From Piedraia hortae CBS 480.64 (taxonomy: Eukaryota), in the NCBI GenBank assembly GCA_010093745.1, contig MU005962.1, positions 1 to 64,000 of the forward strand: a stretch of 64,000 bases of DNA. Reading direction: 5' to 3'. A program made the position numbers and the translations under genes. The notes under the pieces were generated by a model, which was not told the origin of the DNA, ran no database searches, and saw only the letters and a list, made by a program, of their open reading frames with translations. Below, piece by piece: positions 3,275 through 28,092 of the stretch (its first letter is position 1; each line of letters starts with the position of its first letter).

Positions 3275-4702
3275 TGTTGGCATGAAGTCTCGTTGCTATC
3301 AGTGTATGATGCCACTGCGCGACACCTCTTACACCAGCAGCTGCACCCTAGGTTTTGTCCTCACAGAGTTTTCCCTCAGGGTCATGTCGCATGCGACATG
3401 GTGAATGCGCCCTGCTACTGTTTGAGGTGAGTCATGGAGTAAGACTGCATGCTGACAGTCTTACTGCATGTATAACCACTTGCTCACGGTCATACAATTG
3501 ATGACTCTTCATACGAGGCTACGCACGAGCCTTCCAGCCCAGGATATGTTCTCTGATGTTCCCTCGAAGACATACTTGTATTCACTCATAAAACACATCT
3601 CTACTTTCCATCCATCGTTCTCACTCGTACATACTATCTGTCTTTTCACGGGATTCGATGTTCATTTCCCGTGATCGGCATTTGCGCAAGGATTTAGAGA
3701 GATTTGTGGTGATGAGCTCTGTCTGGAATTTCACATCTGAACGCCATACAGTTTCCGGAACCTTAGTTGATGGAGCTTGGACATTTGTCCTTTAGGGGAG
3801 TGTTGAATCAAAGCTTTACGGACGGGATACAGATATTACGTAGCGTTCGCATGACTAGTTCTTCAAACTTTAATTCAAAAATCGTGGTGTACGAATGACA
3901 AACAGCGAACGAATTGATGCGCCTTCCAACGCTATACATAAGGTGGTCGGTCTAGGCCTTGTCAAACTCGAGTACATTGTGAGCAGTTTTTGTATACTTG
4001 ACGATATCACCACACATAAGACAGTACAGCGATCGGCTTGAGGGTTGAGCAGTGTGGCATGACACCGTGAAACTCTTCAGCCGAGTGCAGCATTTCCTCG
4101 ATTGATTAAACAGAATCCGTGCTTCATGGACTCTAGAAGCAATTTTTCCACCTTTTCCTTTCTATCCCTCTTCTTTCCACATGGTGACTAAAGCTTCCTT
4201 GAACTTATTTGAAGGGAGAAAAACGCACATTATCACTTCCGGTGTCGCATGTCAAAGCAGATGTCGTAGAATTGCATGATTCGTAGGTAGGATAATAGTA
4301 CTTGCGGTCCATCGCCACGCTAAGGTAACACTATCATCTTGTAGATATTTAGCTCTCGTGGGTGAGAGTGCACAGCGACCCGAAGAGGGCGGAGCGATAG
4401 ACGGAATCAGGGACAGGAAAGATGTAGATGTATGTAAGTCAAAATACCAGTTGCAGTATGGTAGTGTGAATGACTATGTGTCTCTATAAGGGGACGTCCA
4501 GAATGAAAATTCTGTTCCGGTGGGCCGGTGACGTCACGTCGTACACTAGCGGGGCGTATTCACCATGTCACATATGACATGACCCTGAGGGAAAACCTCT
4601 GTGAGGCAAAAACCTAGGGTGCAGCTGGTAGTGTAGGAGGTATCGCTGACTTGCTATGCAAGTGCCCTGCATACGCGCTAGCGGCGATGCTTGAATCCAA
4701 CA
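3275..4702. mobile_element. Non-autonomous long-TIR DNA element, TGTTGG...CCAACA (Ginger-like candidate)
   Basis: Imperfect inverted repeats 3275-3421 and 4543-4702 (core CAGCTGCACCCTAGGTTTT..CCTCACAGAG.TTTTCCCTCAGGGTCATGTC); minus-strand interior has KSFTVSCHTAQ and NPQADRCT, weakly like Gypsy-type integrase motifs; no clear TSD. Confidence 0.7.
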
Positions 4703-5490: not shown

Positions 5491-6155
5491 ATGGTGCGGC
5501 TCACCTAGTCGATGCAACCAGCCCCTTTTCGCCTATAACCTCACAACAAAAGGCCCTCGTCAATCAGTAGTCTAACAGTACGAAGTATTCTTCCGATAAT
5601 GCTAAATAGAATGAACATATTCATCGCATCGCATATGCAGAGTTGGAAAAGATCATTCGAAAACAAGGCGTTTGACGGACTTCGGACCCGTTCCGTCTGG
5701 CTTTGAAAGCTGCTATGTGTGTGTATTCTGTTTCACGATAATAGACGCGTAAATACGTACACATGGATGATAAATTCTGTCGGAAATGGCCCGCAGTGCC
5801 TCAATGTCAGGATCTCAGTCACACCTCCAATCATGTGGCCTCGTCACGGCCCGTAAAATACTACAACATCGAGACACTTGCCCTTTTGGTCTTCACGCGT
5901 TGTACTAGTCTTTTAGCCAGTATAGAGTAGCGCACACCGCTTAGCTCCGTCCCTTGTGCCTTCCGGCCTCTCAGGCCTGGCATCAAGCCACTTTTTTCCG
6001 AATGATGTCCTTCAACGCTTCGTATGCGGTGTAATGAAATCCTATTCGGCGCTATCAGGGGTACCTGTTGTACTGTCGAATTCTTAATTAATGGTTTGGT
6101 TGTGAAGTTATGGGCAAAAACGGGTCAGTTGCATCGACTAGGTGAGCCGCACCAT
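5491..6155. mobile_element. MITE / internally deleted Tc1-mariner-like element
   Basis: Perfect 28-bp inverted repeats ATGGTGCGGCTCACCTAGTCGATGCAAC (5491-5518) and GTTGCATCGACTAGGTGAGCCGCACCAT (6128-6155). If the termini are TGG...CCA, the right flank is TA and the left CA (mutated TA). No intact ORF. Confidence 0.8.
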
Positions 6156-6646
6156 AGATTAAGTTAGTGAGGTGATTCTCGCTAAAAGGGGGCACCGGCA
6201 ATGTTACACAAGTGCGTCATGCTGCAGAGTAAACCTCTTGTCTGTTTCGAATACCAGCCGTCAGCTGAGTAGTCTACCTAGCCGCGGGGATGGGGTGTTT
6301 GTAGCCAATGAGAAGCCGCTTATACGTTACTAAATAAATTAGCCACGTAAAATATCAAGTAGGAAATATTACCCCTAAGCGATGGCAGTCACTAGTAAAT
6401 CTAGTAGATAATAGAGTTAGCACCTGAGATCATTAGCGTTTGAAAAGATCATATTTGCTGAGGGTTGATTTAGAGGATTAGGTAGTCTAGAACAATGTAG
6501 ACCTTGTTTCTTTAGCCACAAACCGGTAGCTGATCCCGTGCAGTGACTGTTTGATATAGTAGTTTATCTGGGGCTAGAAGAGATAGCGACTACATGAGCA
6601 GGCAGTGGCTTTTCGAGATAGTGTCAAATTTGCGGCTAGTCAGGAC

Positions 6647-6725
6647 AGCGGCTAATGACGACTTAACGGCTAATTACGACTTAGTGGCTAATTACAACCA
6701 AGCGGCTAGGTACGACTAAGTGGCT
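6647..6725. repeat. Subterminal tandem repeat, ~18-bp unit GCGGCTAATTACGACTTA, ~4 copies
   Basis: AGCGGCTAATGACGACTT AACGGCTAATTACGACTT AGTGGCTAATTACAACCA AGCGGCTAGGTACGACTA AGTGGCT; shares the TAGCCGC core with the TIR. Confidence 0.8.
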
Positions 6726-7548
6726 GCACACGGCTTTGCTGTTCCAGGTCGGCTCCCAGAATATACGTTCTAAAAAACTTGTTGAGGGGAATTGGAGATA
6801 TATAATTAGCAAATATAGCACTCTCTAGCTGCGGCTATGCAGCCACTATTCCGTGGTTGTCGCCGAGAGGCCGCCAATAAGCCATAAGAGGTCCTGACTT
6901 GCCTTGAAGGACATCCAGCCCCATCATCATCCAACGAAAGTCCAGTTCGTCGGGGAAGAGGTATTCCTTGAACAGCACCAAGTCAGATAAAGTGAGCCTC
7001 CAAAGCTCTATGCACCCAGGCTGCGGGACCTGCAGCTTTCAGAAACAAGGTATAACAATAGCTAGTGGATGTAAGCTGATGTCAATTAGAACTCAGGGTG
7101 TCATACCTCGAATTTGAGAATATGCTGAGTAGGGCAAGCACAAACGGCTGAGATGTCAGCATGCACGCAAAGCGATGCGGTGGCCGATTGGATTCATCTG
7201 CGTACAAGTTAGAATGATGTTGCCACAAATACAAGCTGGCATACTGTTCACTGGACTCTATTTGAGTCCGAGATCGAGAGCCATATCTTTGCGAAGTTTC
7301 CATGGGAAATGTTCAAATAAGGAGCCAGTGTGCAACAGCGGAGAATCTATTTCAGACCTTGCCGGAATTGATTTCGCTTGAGATGATCCTGGTTCGGCGG
7401 TGCATATCGCCTTCCCTCGTAAGCCGACCACACTTCATCAACGAGAGAAACGAGTAGCAACAGAAGCATCCAAGCCCAGAGCTCCAGCATGCAGATTCAA
7501 TGACGACCTTTAAATACGGCTCAATATTCCTAATCCGTTATTTTATCA

Positions 7549-10500
7549 TTATATGAACTGGATGTTCCAATCTACATGCAATAAATCCGACGAGTCTGCC
7601 TGTTCCTCCATCGCTCCACTGACATCATCCATTGCAATGGGTATGGTGTAAAGCCGCTTGCTGTGGGACGCCGGCAAACCAATGATCCGAGCCTCCATGG
7701 CCACGAGTTGGCGTATTGGGCAGCCAGTAATCGGGTCCAACTGCCCGCAGGGATGAGACACTGTATCAATGACGCGGAGGAAAATTCTGGCGTCTCCACC
7801 GGGATCCCGGTAGGTGAAGATCCTCTCCACCTTGCCGATCTGATCGTGGTGGAAGCGAACAAACTTACCACGGTTCAGCGTTACACGTTGCTCGAACACC
7901 CTAGAGAGTTATTAGTACTCCACATTGACATCCCCCCCAACAGCATACACTTACGGATCGGTGAAAGACGTCTGCTTGTACCAGTGTATAATGCTGCCAG
8001 TCGTCATCGTGCCAATTCCAATGTCGATGCCGTAATTCCCTCGGTAGGCTTTGCAAGGCGGAGCTTGAAGTCGGCAGGCATCTTGGAGTCTTTGACCGGT
8101 AGTTTGATGCTCGCGCAGAATTCTTGCTGGAGGAGGTCGGAGACCGCGGGCCGCAAATGGGTAGCCACCTCCCTACAATACACCATCTGCTCCAGATTGT
8201 GCGTCAGTAGCTGCTCCGATTTAGGCAGCATCTTCCGGAACAGATCTGGCACGTCCTAGTGCAGCTGGCGAGCCATGGCGGTGAGCTCGGAGCGCTCGCT
8301 CGCTAAGGATCCACCCAAAACGTGCCGCATCGTCATCCCAACTTGCATTCGCACGAGCAAGCCCCTCTCAGGACGCAGAAAGTTGGTGGCCTGGACGAGG
8401 TGTTTAAAATCCATAGAACCATTAGTCAAGAAGCCTTTTGCGATGGAAAAAAGGGGAGCCAACCGGTGCTTATCTTCACCCATCAGGGCGTTGCAAAGCC
8501 AGACAGAGCCATATTCGGCCGCTTGCTCGGCATAGTGCAACCCGATGTGCACATTTGGACGCTGGACGATTCCATGCCATTCCTTTGAACGTAGAGTGCT
8601 GGGGCTGGTTCCCTGGACAGTCGTAGACTCGCGGGAGCGGGGGTTTCGAAGGGACGCCAAGGCGGCGACTTCAGCGATGGCTTGAAAGAAGCCCCGACTC
8701 TCCAGGATCTTGTCGTGTAGCTGGGCCAAGTCCCAGCGCGCAATTTGTATGACATCAGCTTAACATTGGTATCGGCAACAGCGGAAAAAATGTATGTATT
8801 CATCATTGAAACAGTAAGGGCTCCGGGTGCCAACCCGATTTTCCGCTCGATGACACGCATCTGCCCGCCGAACTACTATATCAAGGGTCAGCATTTGCTT
8901 CTGGGTGCCAGCTTTGCACACGTACCTCTTTCATGGCCTCGGCGAAATGCGGCAGGATATGCTCGTCCCTGAGCCAGACCCGCAGAAGGGCAAGCGCAAC
9001 GATCGACCAGCGACCGTGCTCTAACAACGAGTAGTGTCCGAGATATCGCACCGGATTTTGGAACTTGATCCACCCCGGAGGGAAGGTGACCTTCCCAAGG
9101 CGGTCCTTGTATTCCGCGAGGGCTGATGGGATGAGGGCGCACTCCTTGAGCAGATGATGCATGAGGTTGGAGATGCCATTCAGCTCGGAATGGGCAGGGT
9201 CGGCCGGCGTGGCGAGGTGCAAGTCCAACGCCGGCGCGAGACGAGACAGAGGGACATCGTCGTCGTCGCACAGTCCCGTATATTTACGATACTTCTGGCT
9301 TTAGGACTTCGTTGGCAGGGACCGCATGTGTGCTCGCATGGCCTTAATCTCGTAATGGCATCGTGGACGAGCTGTGGTGTTTAGCCCGCGGTTGCCGTCT
9401 TTGGTGCTGGCAAAACACTGTCGGCAGCCGTAGATTGCATTGTGGGAGAGCATATCGCAGTTCTTCTGTTGCTGCGGAGTGTCTCCAAGAAACGCAAAAA
9501 CAAAAGCGAATACCGTCGTTTCCTGGCCGATGTTCAGCGTGCCGCCTTCTTCAAACTTGCTCAGGGCCGGTCCGATCGCGTCAACGACATCCTTCAGACT
9601 AGAACCAAGAGGGCCCATAGTTAGGGGAGTGACGTTTGTGCGGCGGTTCCGCTCCACCGTCCCAAGGCTCGCGTTCATCAAATAATACGCCAGTAAAGAC
9701 CGACGCACATTCCGGTATAGCCCAAAACCGTCGATGAACGCAAGCAAATGGAGGGACACGATCGGACCGGAGAGCTATTTGAGAAGCCCTTCGCGACCAT
9801 ATGTTTCCAGCTCTAGTTGGCCGCGTATCGGGTTTGTTAAGGCGAGCGGGCGCAGCTGTTCTGCTGGCTGGGGATTCGCGTTGTACACCCGCCGCACGAA
9901 GTGCTTTGCTGTGTCAAGTCCGCAAGGGAGCATCTGGGGCTTCAGCTCTTCCCTCATGCCGTACCCGTGGTGTTGGATGATGTGGTCGGCGCATGGGCAG
10001 ATGGCGGACTCTTAAATGTGACAGCTATGACCCTCCTCCAAGAAGAGCCCCTTGGAATGGGCGGGGGGTATGAAACGCGACTGAACATCTTGCGGCAGTT
10101 CAGTCTGGTGCAGGAGTTTTCGCACCTGCAGAGCAACCGATCCAGCAGGCCCTCCATGATGGCGCTCGGATCGGTAATCCAGCCCACCGCCATGACCTGA
10201 CCCAGGTGCAGCTGCGGCGAGTGCTCGCTTCGGCAAACACAACCAGAAGAGTTACACCGGAACTCAACGAAGTCGGAAGGAAAGATGGGTTGACCTGCCC
10301 TGGTATAAGCTCTGGTGTCCGGCGTCCCACCTGCCGAGGGATATCTCGCAACGTGGCCTGATGTGCGAACCGAAAAGAGCCATGCATGAGACTCCCAGGC
10401 CTCTTTTGGAGTGTCCACGAAGTGCCCAAAGCCAGTGTGCATCTTGCGCGTGACTCTTAAGACGAAAGGATGGCTTTGAAGAGGTCTGCTGGCTCGAAAA

Positions 10501-11224
10501 AGTAAATATCAGCTTCCCGTTCGGTCGCTGATGATGAAGATGCCGGCGTTTGTGTGGAATCTAGCTGGATAGTTTTCTGGCGTAGGCCCACCAGCGGCAT
10601 GATCAGGCTCAATCGCTTATGGTACTGGTCGTGTGGGACCAAAGTTGATGTATCCGGTGCGAAAAGGGCCGACCGGGGCGTCAGAGAAGGCGGCATTTTT
10701 GGCATTGCAGAAGTAAGTCCCACAGTTAATGAAGGCTCATCTTCATCGCTGTCGCTTTCCACGTCAGAATTTGAGACTGTGGGCTCATCGTCTATTGGCT
10801 CTACGACAGGGGTTTGTTCCCCAGTCCCATTTTCATCCGCTCAGCACCCCCAAAGGAAATTTGTCAACGGTTCGGCATGCTCTCTATCATCCTGGAGGAG
10901 ACGTGAAAGCTCCTGGCGCAATGCCTCTGGCTCAGAAACTTGATACGACGTTGATATCGACTGGTTTTCTTTCGCATCACCTGCATTGTCTTCCACTGGT
11001 GTATTCAACAACTCGTCGATAGGGAAAGACAGCTGCTCTTCATTCTAAGCGGGGGGTTCATTGTTCGGTGACAATGACCACTCGTCGTTGGATTGAACCG
11101 GTTGCTGTCCACCTGTAGAAGCGGGATCTTCGGAGGTGGGTAACCGCGAGTGACCTTCAAACCGTCGTCGCTTTGGCGGTCTTGGACAGTATCAGATGTT
11201 CCACAATCGCTTGTACTTGCGCAT
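7549..11224 (-). pseudogene. Disrupted CACTA/CMC-like DDE transposase
   Basis: Consecutive minus-strand fragments: MHTGFGHFVDTPKEAWESHAW; LAFIDGFGLYRN (D1); FLGDTPQQQKNCDMLSHNAIYGCRQC (D2 plus CxxC); TPADPAHSELNGI (DxxH); LMGEDKHR (E); ends LLHVDWNIQFI*. Multiple frameshifts and stops; start approximate. Confidence 0.75.
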
Positions 11225-11537
11225 ATTTGCTTGTTTCTCGTTTGACGTCTATGTGGGTAGATGAAAACTACGGATAAAACAGTTGCCAGTGTTCAAGAAA
11301 AGTTGAGGAACTGGATTCTGTTACGAATAATTGAGGAACTCGATTCACTTCATACTATGACATACCATGAAGACTGGGCAAGCGAGGCAGTCTTGAACCC
11401 TTTTGGGACGTGGGAAAGCTGCGGGGATCCCGCCTGGATATCAAACGCGCATTGGTAGAATCTCGCTTCCCCGCGTTCCGAAAGGGTTTAGCTCGGATTG
11501 CCACTGGCCAACAACTTCGCTCTCTTCATACACAAAC

Positions 11538-11609
11538 TCACCACAACCTCACCACAACCTCACCACAACCTCACCTCAACCTCACCACAACCTCACCACA
11601 ACCTCACCA
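11538..11609. repeat. Minisatellite (CTCACCACAAC)n, ~6.5 copies
   Basis: Read directly; lies just upstream of the ATG at 11630 inside the transposon. Confidence 0.9.
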
Positions 11610-11629
11610 AAACCCCAAAATAACACCAC

Positions 11630-13228
11630 ATGTCTAACACTCACACGCCCGAAATAGTCGAGCTTGTAAAGCTGCGTAGGCAGGTGGCCGAACAGCAGTC
11701 CCAGGGAGAAGTGTGTAGACGCCGACGAGATTCGGAAGATGAAGAGGTATGCTACGATTTTCCGTCCAAGTCGTGGGCGAGCGACTAACAGTTCACAGAC
11801 AGAGGCTAGTGAGAGACACGCAGCACGTGCAAATGACATCTTGTCGGAGGGGTGAACCTCCGAGGACTAAAGGGGAGCGAATATTGACGACAAAAGTTTT
11901 CACTCAACTTTTAGTGAAAAAGTGGATTTAGATGCCTATATCTATATGAGGTGAGGTTCGAAACCTTCCCCACACTACCTCAGTCTAACCGCATTCGCCA
12001 GGACAACGTCAGCGAACCATGCTCTTAAGCATGAACGAGACAATGACCCGTCCCAGGGAAGACTTCCTCTATAGAGGTGAAAACCCTGAGAAGTTTCGAC
12101 TCCTATCTACAGTTGTGGTCATGGTAGGTGCCACATCCTTCTGACACATCTCGAATGTTCGCGCCATGCAGCGCGAGGCAAATTGGCACGCCTTCTTATA
12201 CGGGTCGAAGGTGGGCCTGGACACCATCATTCAGAAGCACATGGACCCATTGTCCATTGACTCAGAGGCGCTAGCATTGATTGTGGGCACCATGTAGAGA
12301 CATCAACGTAGTTGCCTACCCTACGCGGATACCGACCAGCACGTCGCTCTTCAACCTACAGCAGCATAAGGCCTACGCTAACGGCATAACATTAAATAAC
12401 CACATGACGTTACGTAACATCTGTATAGACTACCGTGACGCAGAAGGTGTGTCGTGGGTCAACAGCGCTGCGCCCGAGATGAGTGCTGCGGCCTCGGACG
12501 ATCAGGTACCCTGCATGAACAACTTCATGAACGTGATCGGTCATGCCGGTGACGATGAGATCATCTGTTTTGGCGTCCATGAGTGCACAAGCGCCGTCGT
12601 GTGTTGACTAAAACTATCGAGTCGGCACGACGCACCGTTGAGCTAGGCAGGTTGTGGACGCCCGTAGGCTGCCAGAGATACAGCCGGGATGGCAAAGGCA
12701 CGTGGTGGACTTGTGAAGTCACAGCGGCGAGACGGAGGTCGTACTTCGTGGAGAGGTGGGAGCCGAACTTTCTTGCCTGCTGGAAGCCGATGAGGGGCTT
12801 CCTTGACATTCAGCCGTCCGCGAACAAGGGCAAATGGTTTCTTGAAAGTAAGTTCGCATTCCATCATGTACCAGCATATGACGCTGACGAGCTTCAACGG
12901 CCATTTATTGGAGACGCTACGATATGTCTGCGCGTGCCAAAGGTACGCGTCGTTCCTCGCAGCCAGCCGCGGGAGACAGTCTGGCGAGGACTCGGAGGAG
13001 GAGACTCCCGCAGGCTCTTCGACGGTCCAGGACAAGACCGCGCGGGACAAGCGGATGGCGGCCTATGATCAAATGTTCGTGCAGGACATGATCGTCAATT
13101 CCGGCCTGAAACGGTCAAACTTCACCGATGCCCAGGCCCGTGTCATAGGTCAGAAGCACAAGCCTGTCGAGGACAAATCTGTCCATTCGCGCATACAGCG
13201 CCACATGAGGCCATCACCGGAGGATTAA
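11630..13228 (+). pseudogene. Second (accessory) gene of the transposon, unknown family, interrupted by a solo LTR
   Basis: ATG 11630 (MSNTHTPEIVELVKLRRQVAEQ..), intron GTATGC...CTAAC...CAG; frame continues across the LTR once it and one TSD are removed (ANDISNVRAMQREANWHAFLYG); later pieces are ORFs 12281-12607, 12583-13068 and 12803-13228. Confidence 0.6.
11842..12146. mobile_element. Solo LTR (305 bp), TSD CATCT
   Basis: TGTC...GACA termini; CATCT at 11837-41 and 12147-51; homologous inverted copy at 27786-28092. Confidence 0.92.
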
Positions 13229-13369
13229 TAGTCATCCACTGCCGTTCGTAGAATGCCACCTTCATGTCCCTGAGTTTTCGCGAAACAATCCTGCGCAGCA
13301 TCATCCTTCGACTGTGACGACGTTCCAATGGCGTGAACTGATGATACTGAGCTCCAGTCACGTGCCAAT

Positions 13370-13880
13370 AGCCATATGCCGCTTAGTCACCACGTCATAC
13401 TTAGCCACTTGGCCGTACATAGCCGCTAGTTCCATTTAACCGCTAATCACTTTTTCAGCTGGTATAAAGTCTCTACCAAGCAGACAAGCCGTCAAACTTG
13501 ACTTTAGGTGCCAATACAGTCAGTAATAAGCCATTTAGCTGGTAGATTTCGCTTAGCCACTAAACTCATTTTTAGCTGCTTTTAAAGTCACTAATAAACT
13601 AGATAGCCGCTAAATTTGTCTTTCACTGCTCACCAAGTCACTAGTGAGCTACTTAGCCAGTAGATTCCACTTAACTGTTAATCTCAGATGAAGCTGCTGA
13701 TGAAGGTTTTAGACAACACGACAGTCGCTATGCTAATCTTATCGCCTTGCCAGTTGCTTTCTAAATGAGTCGCTAGTATTTCTAGCTGCTTTGTAAGTAA
13801 TGCTGCTAAGTTATTGCAGCCATTTTGAAGACGCTATTCGTGTTAGTGGAATCCTAAGTGCTACGTTGAGAATTAGCCGA
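13370..13880. repeat. Right subterminal repeat array of the transposon
   Basis: Recurring TAGCCGCT / TAGCCACT / TAGCTG / AGTCACTA motifs mirroring the left end (6300-6860). Confidence 0.7.
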
Positions 13881-13959
13881 CCGCAAAAACCCCACCCCCG
13901 CGGCTAGGTATGATGTATATATGGCAATACATCTCTGCATGATCTGTCCGTTCTTTCCG

Positions 13960-14700
13960 GCTTCAGATGAAATGTATGATTCAGAGGCTGGGGCAAGTTA
14001 TATTTGGTGGAAATATTCGATGAATTGTTCACCCCTGTCAAATAAAGTGCGAGCGAGGTCGCAGAATCTTGGCGTGTGACGGCCCGCGCCGAGCCGTTGA
14101 CTAGATCGACATCCTTCAAAAGGAACCTGCCAAGTAATGGCATGATCTGAAGGCGAATTGTTCTTTTATTGGCTCGCATAACTACAAGAACAGCTTCTAG
14201 GTGACATTGCGGCTCTCGTTTTCTTCTACAGTTTCGCCTTGGCCGCGACAACAAGTGACCTTTCACGGATGCAGTTGAATTCACGACTTGACGGCCGTCT
14301 GGCATGCATCGCTTGCGAGGGTCATTCCCCAGCTGGCCATAATACTGCTGCGCATCCCGATCATGTTCAGCACCGCAGCAACAAGCGACCATAACATACC
14401 CACGGCACCAGGCGAAAGAGGCCGGAAACTTCATCGTGAACCTCCTGGGCCGTGCAAAGGATGCGGACGCAGACACGACGACAAGGGCTTGGCAACGGAC
14501 TGGCGATACTGAAACAGATTGGTTGCGGCCTGGGGAAGACGCAGGACGATATGACGTAGATGCTGCTGTGGACGAGGGCCATGTTTGCGGATAAGAGGGA
14601 AGCGAAGGAGGTGGAGTCAGACTACATGAGCCCGAAACGAGCAACGCCAGCGCTGCCGGACCTGTAACAGTTGCGGCCGTCGCACAGGGGTGGCGGGAGA
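13960..14700 (+). pseudogene. Degenerate duplicate of the MGM1 promoter and 5' coding region
   Basis: TCTTGGCGTGTGACGGCCCGCGCCGAGCCGTTGA matches ~36438-36471; TAVWHASLARVIPQLAIILLRIPIMF matches MGM1 TTVRHASFSRVIPQLAMKLLRVPAMF; frameshifted and truncated before the GTPase domain. Confidence 0.88.
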
Positions 14701-15360: not shown

Positions 15361-16024
15361 CTAACATGAACATCCCTGATCCCGATCGCCAATGTTAATC
15401 GGGATTGTCTCTGGAAAGTCGGGGTTGAAGTCCTGGCTTTCGCCCTGTGCTAATGCGTTCCTTGCAATAACTACGGGTGTTAGTATACAGTCTTTCGCTT
15501 TGTCGTGGCAACTCACCTTCAAAGGCTTGATCGACATTTGTCGCCTCCTTCGCACTCGTCTCAAAGTAAGGTATACCGCCCTTTGCCTGACAAAACGCCG
15601 TTGCCCTCTTGTTGCTCACGACGCGCTTATCGCCGCCGACATCAACTTTGTTTCCTAGCACAACAAAAGGGAAGCTTTCTGGATCCATCGGACTAGCTTG
15701 GACCAGGAACTCATCCCTCCAGCTGTCCAGCGTGTCGAAGCTCTTTGCGTTGTTAACGTCGTACACAAGCACACAACAGTCCGCGCCACGATAGAAAGCA
15801 ACACCAAGCGATTGGAACCGCTCCTGTCCCGCCGTATCCCACAACTGCAGCGTTACAAGCCGGTCGTCGACCAGGACCTCCTTTGTCAAGAAATCGGCGC
15901 CAATGGTGGCTTTGTACGAGGCAGAAAACTTCTTGTTGACGAATTGGTTCATCAGACTGGTCTTGCCGACACCAGAATCGCCCAGGATAATAACCTTGAG
16001 CAGAATCTTCTTGCGCGAGGCCAT
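15361..16024 (-). CDS. YPT7: Rab7-family GTPase
   Basis: [24 protein letters not shown] motifs; one intron 15471-15516; C-terminal CSC prenylation motif. Confidence 0.97.
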
Positions 16025-16140
16025 TGCAGTCAATGTTGTTGGTGATGATGAGGTCGGCCGTGACCGGGAGGGGTGAGGGGCTACGGAACGGCCCGGGGGA
16101 AATACGGTCCGGGCCGGCCACTATATTAGTTAGAATTCGC

Positions 16141-16800
16141 TCACACATCATCTAGCCCCCTCTTGCTCCATTCCCATTTCCAGAAGCTTATGCCGGGAAA
16201 TGTTGCTACTACCCTCCCGGTGATTAATGCCAAAGGCAAGGGGCCATACATTCTCGAGTCACGGCTCCATGTGAGATTATCTCCTGTCACCCAGCAATGG
16301 CCTTCTGGAACCTGCAGCATTTTATTTCGGCTTGAATTGCCAACCACAAAATCCCCCGGCATCCCAATTACCCGCTTGAGCGCGTAGTCGCCTTCTCGCA
16401 CGGGATGCTTGAACGTGACCAAGTCTCCAATACCTACTCCCCGTCCTCGTCGCTCATACTTGCTAATGACTAGTGCCTGTCCTTCGGGAGGGATAGTGGG
16501 CAGCATGGAAATTCCCCATGCCGGCTCGATGGAGTAGACGTATTCGATAAAGATGTGAGTCCCAGCCAGTACTGCCAGGGCAATCTGCCAGTTGATCAGG
16601 CTGGACTTGGATCGGATTGTAGCCAGTGTTCTTTTGAGCTTCAAGAGGAGATAGCGTTCCGGGGAAAGCGGTGGCTCTGGAGAAGATTCGGGTTCGAGTT
16701 CGGGCCTCCTCGGGCCTGGTCTAGAAATTCTTTGGTGGTGCTTTGGTTGAGGAGGCAAACGCGTCGAGTAGAGCCTTGACTGGCGAACGATGCGCCGCAT
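16141..16800 (-). CDS. IMP1: Mitochondrial inner membrane peptidase subunit 1 (S26)
   Basis: GISMLPT (Ser), LKRVIGMPGD (Lys), VPEGHCWVTGDN, SRDSRMYGPLP; presequence-like N-terminus. Confidence 0.9.
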   Translation of the reverse strand: MRRIVRQSRLYSTRLPPQPKHHQRISRPGPRRPELEPESSPEPPLSPERYLLLKLKRTLATIRSKSSLINWQIALAVLAGTHIFIEYVYSIEPAWGISMLPTIPPEGQALVISKYERRGRGVGIGDLVTFKHPVREGDYALKRVIGMPGDFVVGNSSRNKMLQVPEGHCWVTGDNLTWSRDSRMYGPLPLALITGRVVATFPGISFWKWEWSKRGLDDV

Positions 16801-16934
16801 AACGATTCCTTTGTCCGTACGATGACCGACGCGCGACGCACGGCCGTGTGATTTGTCACAAATTGCACGTGATGCCTCCCTTCAGGATCCGTCAAGCCGA
16901 CCAAGACGCTAGTGTTTGCGACATTGGCCATGTA

Positions 16935-18476
16935 ATGCCTCTGACATCTTTCAACGAGCTGCCGACACATGCATTAGGAGCGTCGACGTCAGATAGACGA
17001 CGCTTCCGGGTGCGGTGGGTGGAGCGCAAGTGCTGCCACTTCCTGGCGCATTTCCCGCTTCTTATCGTCCATGGCCTTACGGCCTGGGCCATCTGGGTCC
17101 ACCTGAACATTGTATTTCTCATGGAATCATCGCCATGGCACATTACCGAAGCTGTGGTCGGCTTCGCGCTGTATCTCCTGTCTAATGTCTCCTACGCTGT
17201 CGCCGTCTTTACCTCTCCCGGAAGCCCGCTGGATCCGCGATGCGACTGGAGCAAGACGTCGAGAGGAGGATATGAGGGTTTGCCAACGCACCAAGATGAT
17301 GATGATGATGATGGCTACAAGACCGATGGTATGACGACGGTGACGGCCAAGAATAGCTCCGGCAGGCCGCGGTACTGCAACAAATGCCAGACTGTCAAGC
17401 CAGACAGAGCCCACCACTGTTCGTCATGCGGCCGCTGCGTCTTAAAGATGGACCACCACTGCCCCTGGCTAGCAACATGCGTCGGGCTGCGCAACTATAA
17501 GCCCTTCCTCCTCTTCCTCATTTACGTCAGCTGTTTTTGCTGGGTATGCCTTATCTCCTCAGGCTCCTGGATCTGGGGTGAGGTGGGTGAAGAAGTGCCA
17601 GCGGAACAAGGTATCAACGCTGTCAACGCCGTCATGTTGGCTGTCCTCGCACTCGTTATTGGCATAGCCTTAACGGGCTTCACAATCTGGCACATATACC
17701 TCGCACTCACCAATCAAACCACCATCGAATCACTTGAAAAAACTCGCTATCTGGCGCCATTCCACGAATCTTCTCTGCCGCATCAAGATTCCGATGATGT
17801 GCCGCTCGCGCAGCGTGTGAAGGAAATCCATGCAAACGTTATTCCCGGTGTAACTCGCCCGGAAGAAGGTGAAGCGTCTTCGCCCAGCCGTAGTCCCGCC
17901 GCGGATAGTCTCCAGCGTAGCTACGCATCTATGGAAGCGAGGCGCGATCGTGAGCGTTACCGTTCGTACCAAGACGAGCTCGACAGCGAGGCGTTGCCCA
18001 ATGCCTTCGATCTCGGTTGGAAGCGGAATCTCCTGTCTATTTTCGGAGCGAAGCCGCTCTTTTGGGGTCTACCAGTCTGCAACACCCCAGGTGACGGCTG
18101 GTCGTGGCCTGTGAATCCGTCTTGGATTGAGCTTCGCGCAGAGTTGGCCCGCACACGCGCACAGCGCGAGCGGGAAGAAAACTTTTGGTCTTGGGCGGAC
18201 AGCGACTCTCTCCGATCGTTTGCGGGTCCAAGGTCCCTAAGATGGACCCCCGGCAGGGGCTTTGTAGACGTTGCCGCTGCATCAGCTAAGCCGCCCAAGA
18301 TGCAGGCTAGAATAGAACCGCATCCCATGGGCCCTAAACGCGAAGGGGCCGCCTCAAAATCCAACAAGAGGATTCAGGAGGAGAATTGGAATGATATTCC
18401 CGACAATATGCTTGTTCCTCCGGTAAGGGCCTCCTCGGCCAGGAGCCCGAGTCCGACTCGTTGGAAAGGCGATTAG
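16935..18476 (+). CDS. PFA3: DHHC palmitoyltransferase, Pfa3-like
   Basis: CNKC..KPDRAHHCSSCGRCVLKMDHHCPW, four TM segments, NQTTIE, NAFDLGWKRN; intronless; start chosen at first plausible ATG. Confidence 0.9.
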   Translation: MPLTSFNELPTHALGASTSDRRRFRVRWVERKCCHFLAHFPLLIVHGLTAWAIWVHLNIVFLMESSPWHITEAVVGFALYLLSNVSYAVAVFTSPGSPLDPRCDWSKTSRGGYEGLPTHQDDDDDDGYKTDGMTTVTAKNSSGRPRYCNKCQTVKPDRAHHCSSCGRCVLKMDHHCPWLATCVGLRNYKPFLLFLIYVSCFCWVCLISSGSWIWGEVGEEVPAEQGINAVNAVMLAVLALVIGIALTGFTIWHIYLALTNQTTIESLEKTRYLAPFHESSLPHQDSDDVPLAQRVKEIHANVIPGVTRPEEGEASSPSRSPAADSLQRSYASMEARRDRERYRSYQDELDSEALPNAFDLGWKRNLLSIFGAKPLFWGLPVCNTPGDGWSWPVNPSWIELRAELARTRAQREREENFWSWADSDSLRSFAGPRSLRWTPGRGFVDVAAASAKPPKMQARIEPHPMGPKREGAASKSNKRIQEENWNDIPDNMLVPPVRASSARSPSPTRWKGD

Positions 18477-27785: not shown

Positions 27786-28092
27786 TGTCAGAAGGATGTG
27801 GCACCCACCATGACCAGAACTATAGATAGGAGTCGAAACTTCTCAGGGTTTTTACCTCTATAAAGGAAGTTTTCCCTGAGACGGGTCATTGTCTCGTTCA
27901 TGCTTAAGGGCATGGTTCGCTGACGTTGTCCTGGCAAATGCGGTTAGACTGAGGTAGTGTGGGGGAGATATCGAACCTCACCTCATAGATATAGACATCT
28001 ACATTTCACCTTCTTCAGTAAAAGTTAAGTGAAAGCTTTTGTCATTGATATCCACTCCACTCTAGTCCTCAGAGGTTCACCCCCCTCCGACA
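27786..28092. mobile_element. Solo LTR (307 bp), TSD GTGAC; same family as 11842-12146, opposite orientation
   Basis: TGTCA...CGACA termini; GTGAC at 27781-85 and 28093-97. Confidence 0.92.

Follow-up and report, generated by a model that had tools for sequence, protein, structure and literature searches.

The first 64,000 nucleotides of contig MU005962.1 of the fungus Piedraia hortae CBS 480.64, referred to as the window throughout, contain at positions 6277–13908 a unit of 7,632 bp lying between paired inverted ends. Inside it, a transposase gene on the minus strand and a second gene on the plus strand are oriented divergently, and each end carries an array of a short motif that is part of the tip. 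The unit is probably one copy of a two-gene DNA transposon of the cut-and-paste type, structurally whole but genetically dead, whose DDE transposase belongs to the RAG1/Transib/CACTA-like group.

Ends, flanks and subterminal arrays

The longest inverted repeat in the region 5800–14400 pairs 6275–6301 with 13884–13910 over 27 nt (93% paired). It includes two 25-nt terminal inverted repeats (TIRs) that match at 23 of 25 positions (CCTAGCCGCGGGGATGGGGTGTTTG in one arm, CCTAGCCGCGGGGGTGGGGTTTTTG in the other), and TA lies directly outside either arm. The 20-nt tip pattern occurs at only two sites in the window, where 0.02 are expected, and two or more sites were reached in none of 100 shuffles. 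The element reads CCTAG...CTAGG at its tips; the CACT(A/G) termini of canonical CACTA elements are absent. The features of the two ends are as follows.

6275..6276, unstranded: left flank TA, putative 2-bp target-site duplication (read from the sequence and from the inverted-repeat search)
6277..6301, plus strand: left TIR, beginning CCTAGCCGCGGGG (inverted-repeat search, tip pattern count)
6277..6840, unstranded: left subterminal array, eight TAGCCRC, of which three are tip-oriented, followed by five inverted
13380..13908, unstranded: right subterminal array, four inner TAGCCRC and looser TTAGCYR, all inverted relative to the tip
13884..13908, minus strand: right TIR (inverted-repeat search, tip pattern count)
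13909..13910, unstranded: right flank TA, putative target-site duplication (read from the sequence)

The motif TAGCCRC is found 21 times in the window, compared with 12.0 ± 3.7 expected for the window as a whole. Eight of these sites fall in 6279–6837 and five in 13402–13906, one lies inside the element at 8162, and seven are spread over the other ~56 kb. Going inward from each tip, tip-oriented sites come first and inverted ones lie deeper, and because this order is the same from either side, both ends are built alike. A preliminary description of this DNA had proposed TIRs of about 25 bp, TA flanks and subterminal arrays derived from the tip core, all of which is borne out by the inverted-repeat, tip and TAGCCRC counts. 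Around the element there is no direct repeat longer than TA (the next bases outward are GTC on the left and TGA on the right), and no 3-bp target duplication is present at its flanks in the window sequence.

Two public sequencing runs of the same organism cover the stretch, X1 (DNA) and X2, neither of which is recorded as RNA. In X1, the DNA depth over 9271–11105 equals that of the unique flank (11.6 versus 11.3), so that this copy is single. Elsewhere there are a few diverged copies, represented by one contig with 26 differences over 8559–8906 and by another carrying 25 nt in place of 6656–6962.

A transposase pseudogene and its family

Minus-strand stop-to-stop frames over 7549–10840 hold the peptides FIDGFGLY, GDTPQQQKN..GCRQC, PADPAHSE, RPNVHIGLH and GEDKHR, and tblastn with four homologues places the transposase at 7552–10837 on the same strand, with the frame changing along the gene. 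The motif order FIDGFGLY ... GDTPQQ ... CRQC ... DPAHSE ... HIGLH ... GEDKHR is kept. The gene comprises the following features, all on the minus strand.

7552..11200: transcribed transposase pseudogene with a predicted RAG1-like core (tblastn homology and RNA contigs; the start near 11200 is approximate)
9730..9732, 9481..9483, 9415..9426, 8535..8549 and 8475..8477: approximate positions of the motif codons of the remnant, namely D, D, CxxC, HxxxH and E
8876..8925: intron of 50 nt, GT..AG (X2 contigs)
8411..8463: intron of 53 nt, GT..GG, directly after GEDKHR; the joint shifts the reading frame (X2 contigs)
7901..7954: intron of 54 nt, GT..AG (X2 contigs)
7552..8052: coding remnant of a putative BAH-like domain, aligning to residues 1053–1208 of homologue P0012 and 1058–1197 of P0021

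The X2 contigs have no differences to the window, yet they skip 7901–7954, 8411–8463 and 8876–8925 on the minus strand and 11747–11798 and 12848–12899 on the plus strand. Each of the five skipped pieces is 50–54 nt long, starts with GT and contains a branch-like CTAAC, CTAAT or CTGAC, and the joints are absent from X1. From these spliced contigs we read X2 as RNA, and because they match without a single difference while skipping intron-like pieces, both genes of this copy are transcribed and spliced. The contig of the transposase RNA spans 2906 nt and is identical to this copy. Despite the absence of differences, two of the five joints end in GG (8411–8463, minus) and CG (12848–12899, plus) instead of AG, perhaps because the acceptor sites used have decayed.

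Splicing leaves some nine stops or frame changes in the transposase. The stops are an in-frame TAG at 9775–9777, an in-frame TAA at 9301–9303, a third where the exons meet at 8926/8875 and a fourth near 8253–8255; the frame changes lie near 10455, near 10190, near 8740, at the 8464/8410 junction and near 8052–8070. The N-terminal alignment is ~46 residues short of the family, and the conserved family motif GLWC..G.SR..Y seems to have been lost. The element had been taken as complete, which holds for its ends only: both genes are broken, the transposase being a transcribed pseudogene. Many predicted homologues stop at profile position 861, the family consensus ends at GEDKHR, and it is at this very point that an intron lies in the window; the short database models probably reflect an unrecognised intron after this motif.

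A search with P0001, a read-through of 8884–10011 with X placed at the two in-frame stops, returned 23 longer proteins (threshold E ≤ 1e-3; E 4e-110 to 2e-47, 36–52% identity), none of which carries a precomputed Pfam domain. At E ≤ 1e-3 the profile of these 23 homologues, run against 1.84 billion proteins, matched 3542 cluster representatives, of which 933 also passed E ≤ 1e-30. Of ten representatives looked up, eight were named and all eight were Pezizomycotina, including Morchella snyderi (two), Hyaloscypha variabilis, Xylaria nigripes, Zymoseptoria tritici, Annulohypoxylon truncatum and Chaenotheca gracillima; Aureobasidium melanogenum is also among the P0001 homologues. In an alignment of 89 sequences, numbered after the intact relative P0051, residues D125, D208, C227, C230, H304, E306, H535, H539, E559 and H562 are each at least 90% conserved. 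The order of the family motifs is D, D, C(2)C, H(3)H, E, and the window retains the triad, CRQC and HIGLH, in agreement with the minus-strand transposase of D..D-CxxC..DxxH..E order that had been recognised beforehand.

The AlphaFold2 model of P0051, built on this alignment, is of high confidence (predicted local distance difference test, pLDDT, 90.3; predicted template modelling score, pTM, 0.90). In a Foldseek search of the PDB, each of the 32 matches listed ahead of rank 45 is a RAG1 or an amphioxus RAG-like protein (best E 6.8e-7 over ~545 columns), and HzTransib is found at E 2.9e-3. VIA-align superposes model residues 112–615 on mouse RAG1 587–1008 over 373 residues (Z 15.4, root-mean-square deviation (rmsd) 4.2 Å), with Z 14.0 for BbRAGL and Z 12.6 for HzTransib. 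The catalytic residues of RAG1, D600, D708 and E962, fall in the aligned range and would correspond to D125, D208 and E559, judging from order and spacing, not from a residue-level alignment. The motif order together with the RAG1-like predicted fold supports membership of the transposase in the CACTA/Mirage/Chapaev/Transib/RAG1-like group.

Beyond the core, residues 646–837 of the P0051 model align with the BAH domains of ZMET2, DNMT1 (BAH1), ORC1, TNRC18 and BAHCC1 (VIA-align, Z 9.0–10.5, 109–125 residues, rmsd 2.7–4.3 Å), and Foldseek matches the model to the ORC1 BAH domain at E 2.7e-3. The passages of a survey of transposon fusions used here name Chromo and PHD fusions, not BAH, which is no proof of absence (10.1101/2021.11.30.470311).

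The second gene and related elements

Scanning metagenomes with the family profile yielded 54 loci (numbered L001 onwards). Nine of them have a conserved frame upstream of the transposase, which is divergent in seven (L003, L004, L005, L016, L022, L035 and L036) and on the same strand in two (L002 and L031); in L004 it is an open frame of 416 codons (P0170), and the L004 transposase likewise has an open frame, of 1190 aa up to where its last long exon ends. L015 has no second-gene match and only ~0.7 kb of room for one. The counterpart in the window is laid out as follows.

11630..13228, plus strand: second gene, divergent transcribed pseudogene, ATG at 11630 and stop at 13226–13228 (spliced RNA contigs and profile homology)
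11747..11798, plus strand: intron, GT..AG (X2 joints)
12848..12899, plus strand: intron, GT..CG (X2 joints)
11842..12146, unstranded: nested high-copy miniature transposon of 305 bp in exon 2 of the second gene, with a 5-bp duplication CATCT (11837–11841 and 12147–12151)

A profile of the nine second genes, run against 1688 open reading frames (ORFs) of the window, ranked 12583–13065 (E 6.5e-8), 12145–12294 (E 0.009) and 12794–13225 (E 2.1) as its top three, all colinear. Because these matches are both top-ranked and colinear, the second gene of the window represents, in decayed form, an accessory gene specific to the family; the divergent second gene of the preliminary description thus stands on plus-strand spliced RNA contigs and on the profile match. 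Among the methods tried on its homology, the profile alone succeeded: word-based protein searches with the window ORF and with the L004 protein gave no homologues, tblastx of 11200–13908 against all 54 loci gave no match, and tblastn of P0170 against the window gave only chance matches elsewhere. The protein is modelled, with low confidence, as all-helical. A lead to DUF6532 from the ESM Atlas is weak (score 0.93 with 144–146 shared features, less than true members typically reach), and none of 17 Pfam rows confirms it. By analogy with TnpA of En/Spm, the second protein might bind the subterminal arrays.

The 305-bp element nested in exon 2 has the ends TGTCRGARGG...GACA and a contig depth of ~3460, compared with ~11 for unique DNA. 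A second copy at 27786–28092 is 89% identical and flanked by the duplication GTGAC, and this miniature inverted-repeat element is probably present in hundreds of copies. The insert adds a stop five codons in and is carried in the second-gene transcript, whose frame is broken again downstream, between ~12297 and 12583. An 11-nt tandem unit (CCTCACCACAA-like, ~8 copies) occupies 11525–11612, between the divergent genes and just upstream of the second-gene ATG. Outside the element, a very high-copy repeat (≤4500–4702, depth 5000–7000 in both runs) ends at 4702; many contigs join it to 11841–11843 or 12146, suggesting that in other parts of the genome it and the 305-bp element frequently lie side by side. 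The right flank is, by eye, gene-dense, with a Rab7/Ypt7-like GTPase (15395–16120, minus) ~1.5 kb from the right end of the element, a mitochondrial inner-membrane-protease-like frame (16141–16881, minus) and a DHHC palmitoyltransferase-like frame (16803–18476, plus).

The ends of related elements were sought with the pattern CCTT?A[GC]C[CG]G[CGA], which does not include TA. Of its 18 matches in the relative loci, six read CCTTA[GC]CGG, face inward and lie just outside the transposase match (L002 right, L004 right, L015 left and right, L021 right and L045 right), and all six are preceded by TA; the remaining 12 are within coding sequence or far off. The TA flanks noted in the window therefore recur in relatives, whose ends read CCTTAGCGG. 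In L002, CCTTAGTGGAG... is paired with CCTTAGCGGCGGG... at a distance of 6.5 kb with TA on both sides, and its left end, found outside the TA-free scan, reads CCTTAGTGG and likewise follows TA. The L015 element, 4.9 kb long, is flanked by TA at either end. L004 and L021, both from one metagenome, are 93–96% alike up to 28 bp from the tip, have CCTTAGCGG-TA in common and diverge past the TA. A second pattern that requires TA, and is biased in this respect, adds L036 left and L026 right (with an identical 34-nt tip) and L031 left; L006, L007 and L013 were unpaired TA+CCTAG candidates of this pattern and were not counted. No recognisable tips were found at the alignment borders of L001/L039, L035/L041 and L006/L042.

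Three of the loci showed further peculiarities. The L002 element lies between perfect 40-bp direct repeats (7125–7164 and 13704–13743), each a 38-bp near-palindrome plus TA, in the arrangement X-TA-[element]-TA-X-TA. A tandem or foldback repeat may have served as its insertion site; target duplications as long as 40 bp would be very unusual. L039 is an internal-deletion derivative of the L001 type, lacking L001 1785–5350 and 91–95% identical on both sides. L024 is 100% identical to L022 but lacks 165 bp (L022 6158–6322), which may be an intron or a deletion.

The recurrent TA can be read in two ways. It might be part of the terminal repeat itself (5'-TACC...GGTA-3'), the element either making no duplication or having lost it in the meantime. 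TA is self-complementary and the repeat runs through it at 27 nt, an invariant terminal base pair would explain just as well why TA accompanies all CCT(T)AG ends observed, and neither run provided an empty site. Such an element would make no duplication, however, which is rare among DDE transposases; in L047, the most distant relative, one flank is TA and the other CA, as expected of a mutable flank; and the nearest described lineage, the EnSpm-like transposons with TA duplications (ESTA), does duplicate TA (Kojima 2025, PMC12730594). We regard a terminal TA as unlikely and instead infer a 2-bp TA duplication, which is favoured because no direct repeat of any length lies outside the TA in the window, L002 or L015.

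Place among described transposons and significance

In the portions of the ESTA report that we draw on here and below (PMC12730594), ESTA transposases are RAG1-like by HHpred and possess C(2)C and H(3–4)H motifs. The motif set C(2)C/H(3)H defines the clade of CACTA/EnSpm-Mirage-Chapaev-Transib (CMCT), which includes Plavaka, ESTA and Lanisha, has mostly 5'-CA..TG-3' termini, and makes duplications of 2 to 5 bp (PMC12730594). The family described here shares the DDE triad, the C(2)C/H(3)H motifs and the likeness to the RAG1/Transib core, but not the 5'-CA..TG-3' termini.

ESTA is the closest described group. As in ESTA, TA is found on both flanks, likeness to RAG1 appears only at the level of structure, the elements are multi-kb in size (ESTA consensus lengths are 7–14 kb) and the host is a fungus (PMC12730594). 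The tips here are CCTAG or CCTTAG, whereas 70 of the 88 ESTA occurrences listed could be compared and all start with CAC, for example CACCACGG and CACCGCGG; the hosts here are Pezizomycotina, whereas those of ESTA are rusts (Pucciniales: Melampsora, Puccinia species and Austropuccinia) or Agaricus bisporus (PMC12730594). CCT(T)AG ends, an ascomycete range, a BAH-like domain and a second gene are not among the ESTA features described in these portions, nor did a literature search turn up this family. The family, set beside ESTA by description and not by transposase sequence, may be a branch of ESTA, which is slightly less likely than not, or else a sister lineage. The suggestion that the ends and the TA target might be undescribed accordingly divides: TA targeting is already in print for ESTA, and CCT(T)AG ends are not among the ESTA occurrences compared here (PMC12730594).

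The core fold shared with RAG1, Transib and ProtoRAG (9jpu, 6dbo, 6b40 and 6pqx) extends over ~373 residues with Z 12.6–15.4, and D, D, CxxC, HxxxH and E agree in both order and spacing. Sequence identity is only ~10–12%, and in place of a RAG2-like partner there are a fused BAH-like domain and an unrelated helical second protein. Transib elements make 5-bp duplications and have CACGGTG ends.

The family could also represent canonical CACTA/En-Spm or Plavaka elements with mutated tips. It resembles CACTA/En-Spm (TnpD plus TnpA) in its short TIRs, ~500-bp subterminal arrays of a short motif, two-gene layout and CMC-type motif order, and it resembles Plavaka (PF18759), a CMCT lineage of fungi in which PlavakaA makes 2-bp duplications (PMC12730594), to which one homologue also has a weak Pfam match. 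Yet CCT(T)AG tips recur in at least eight independent relatives and are therefore no private mutation. The flanks are 2-bp TA and not 3 bp, and the family has neither CACTA tips nor a 3-bp duplication. Transposase_21 (PF02992) had no match at E ≤ 10 in 11 full-length homologues or in P0001, nor at E ≤ 0.1 in 13 ORF pieces of the window, and Transposase_23 and _24 were likewise unmatched in the 11 homologues. Published Plavaka ends are TGT..ACA or CATCA..TGATG (PMC12730594). In the 11 homologues the sole transposase family reported by Pfam at E ≤ 10 was Plavaka, in one of them (P0019, E 0.12; 12.1 bits against a cut-off of 26.3), the other ten having no such match. We therefore consider mutated CACTA or Plavaka tips very improbable. 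The CMC-type assignment made beforehand thus holds in the wide sense of a CMC/Transib/RAG1-like group, by motifs and predicted fold, and fails for canonical CACTA.

Membership of a classical superfamily that targets TA (Tc1/mariner/pogo, or PHISTA, which is related to Harbinger) would account for the TA flanks and, in Harbinger-type elements, for two genes, but is hardly credible: the fold matches are RAG1, RAG-like and Transib and not Mos1, Tc or IS5-like cores, DDE_1, DDE_3, HTH_Tnp and DDE_Tnp_4 of Pfam are unmatched in the 11 homologues at E ≤ 10 and in the window pieces, and the placing of C(2)C and H(3)H between D and E is characteristic of CMC/Transib (PMC12730594).

Several observations weigh against a RAG1/Transib/CACTA-like transposon with a TA target and a BAH-like domain. 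Sequence methods give no link to any named transposase: Pfam matched none of the window pieces (13 ORF pieces at E ≤ 0.1, and the read-through P0001), and the profile of the 23 homologues did not find RAG1 among PDB sequences, yielding instead a chance match to PrsA at E 0.15. The BAH likeness is one of predicted fold only, as Pfam BAH had no match at E ≤ 10 in the 11 homologues. The second protein falls into no Pfam or other recognisable family and gave a poor model (pLDDT 58). CCT(T)AG ends break the CMCT habit of 5'-CA..TG-3'. L047 (29% identity) has 26-nt repeats that start CTATARC and stands as an exception to the TA flanks. Finally, no joint crosses 6276/13909 in either run and no empty site was seen, so that TA might form the last base pair of the repeat with nothing duplicated.

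On the reading that we prefer, that of a RAG1/Transib/CACTA-like cut-and-paste transposon, the transposase, possibly aided by the all-helical second protein, would bind the CCTAGCCGC tip and the TAGCCRC arrays and pair both ends. Excision would be followed by insertion at TA, the TA being duplicated via a 2-bp staggered cut, and the BAH-like domain may direct insertion to marked chromatin. Array binding, the staggered cut and the parts played by the second protein and the BAH-like domain are what we infer from these comparisons. This copy can make neither protein and would be mobile only if intact copies elsewhere supplied both.

A more far-reaching proposal, possible but on balance doubtful, is that of an unnamed RAG1-like two-gene lineage spread across Pezizomycotina, with CCT(T)AG tips at TA, a fused BAH-like chromatin reader that steers insertion and a helical accessory factor that reads the arrays. 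If true, the BAH-like domain would be a fused counterpart to the reliance of RAG1 on the PHD finger of RAG2.

This copy is ordinary debris, without effect on the host beyond a transcribed pseudogene pair near the Rab7-like gene. The family, widespread in Pezizomycotina, is set apart as a variant worth recording by its tips, its hosts, its BAH-like domain and its accessory gene, and it differs from its closest described relative, ESTA, in its CCT(T)AG ends. The family comprises hundreds to thousands of ascomycete sequence clusters and, having no Pfam model, is invisible to domain-based censuses of fungal transposons. One such census, in the portions used here, assigns CMC elements via Transposase_21/23/24, calls Transib missing from fungi and finds fungal CMC elements in RepBase only for Basidiomycota and Mucorales (PMC5751038). 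The TA-targeting RAG1-like group would thereby be extended from basidiomycetes to ascomycetes, with different ends, and intact natural copies could show how targets are picked by a core of RAG1 type together with its fused BAH-like reader and an accessory protein.

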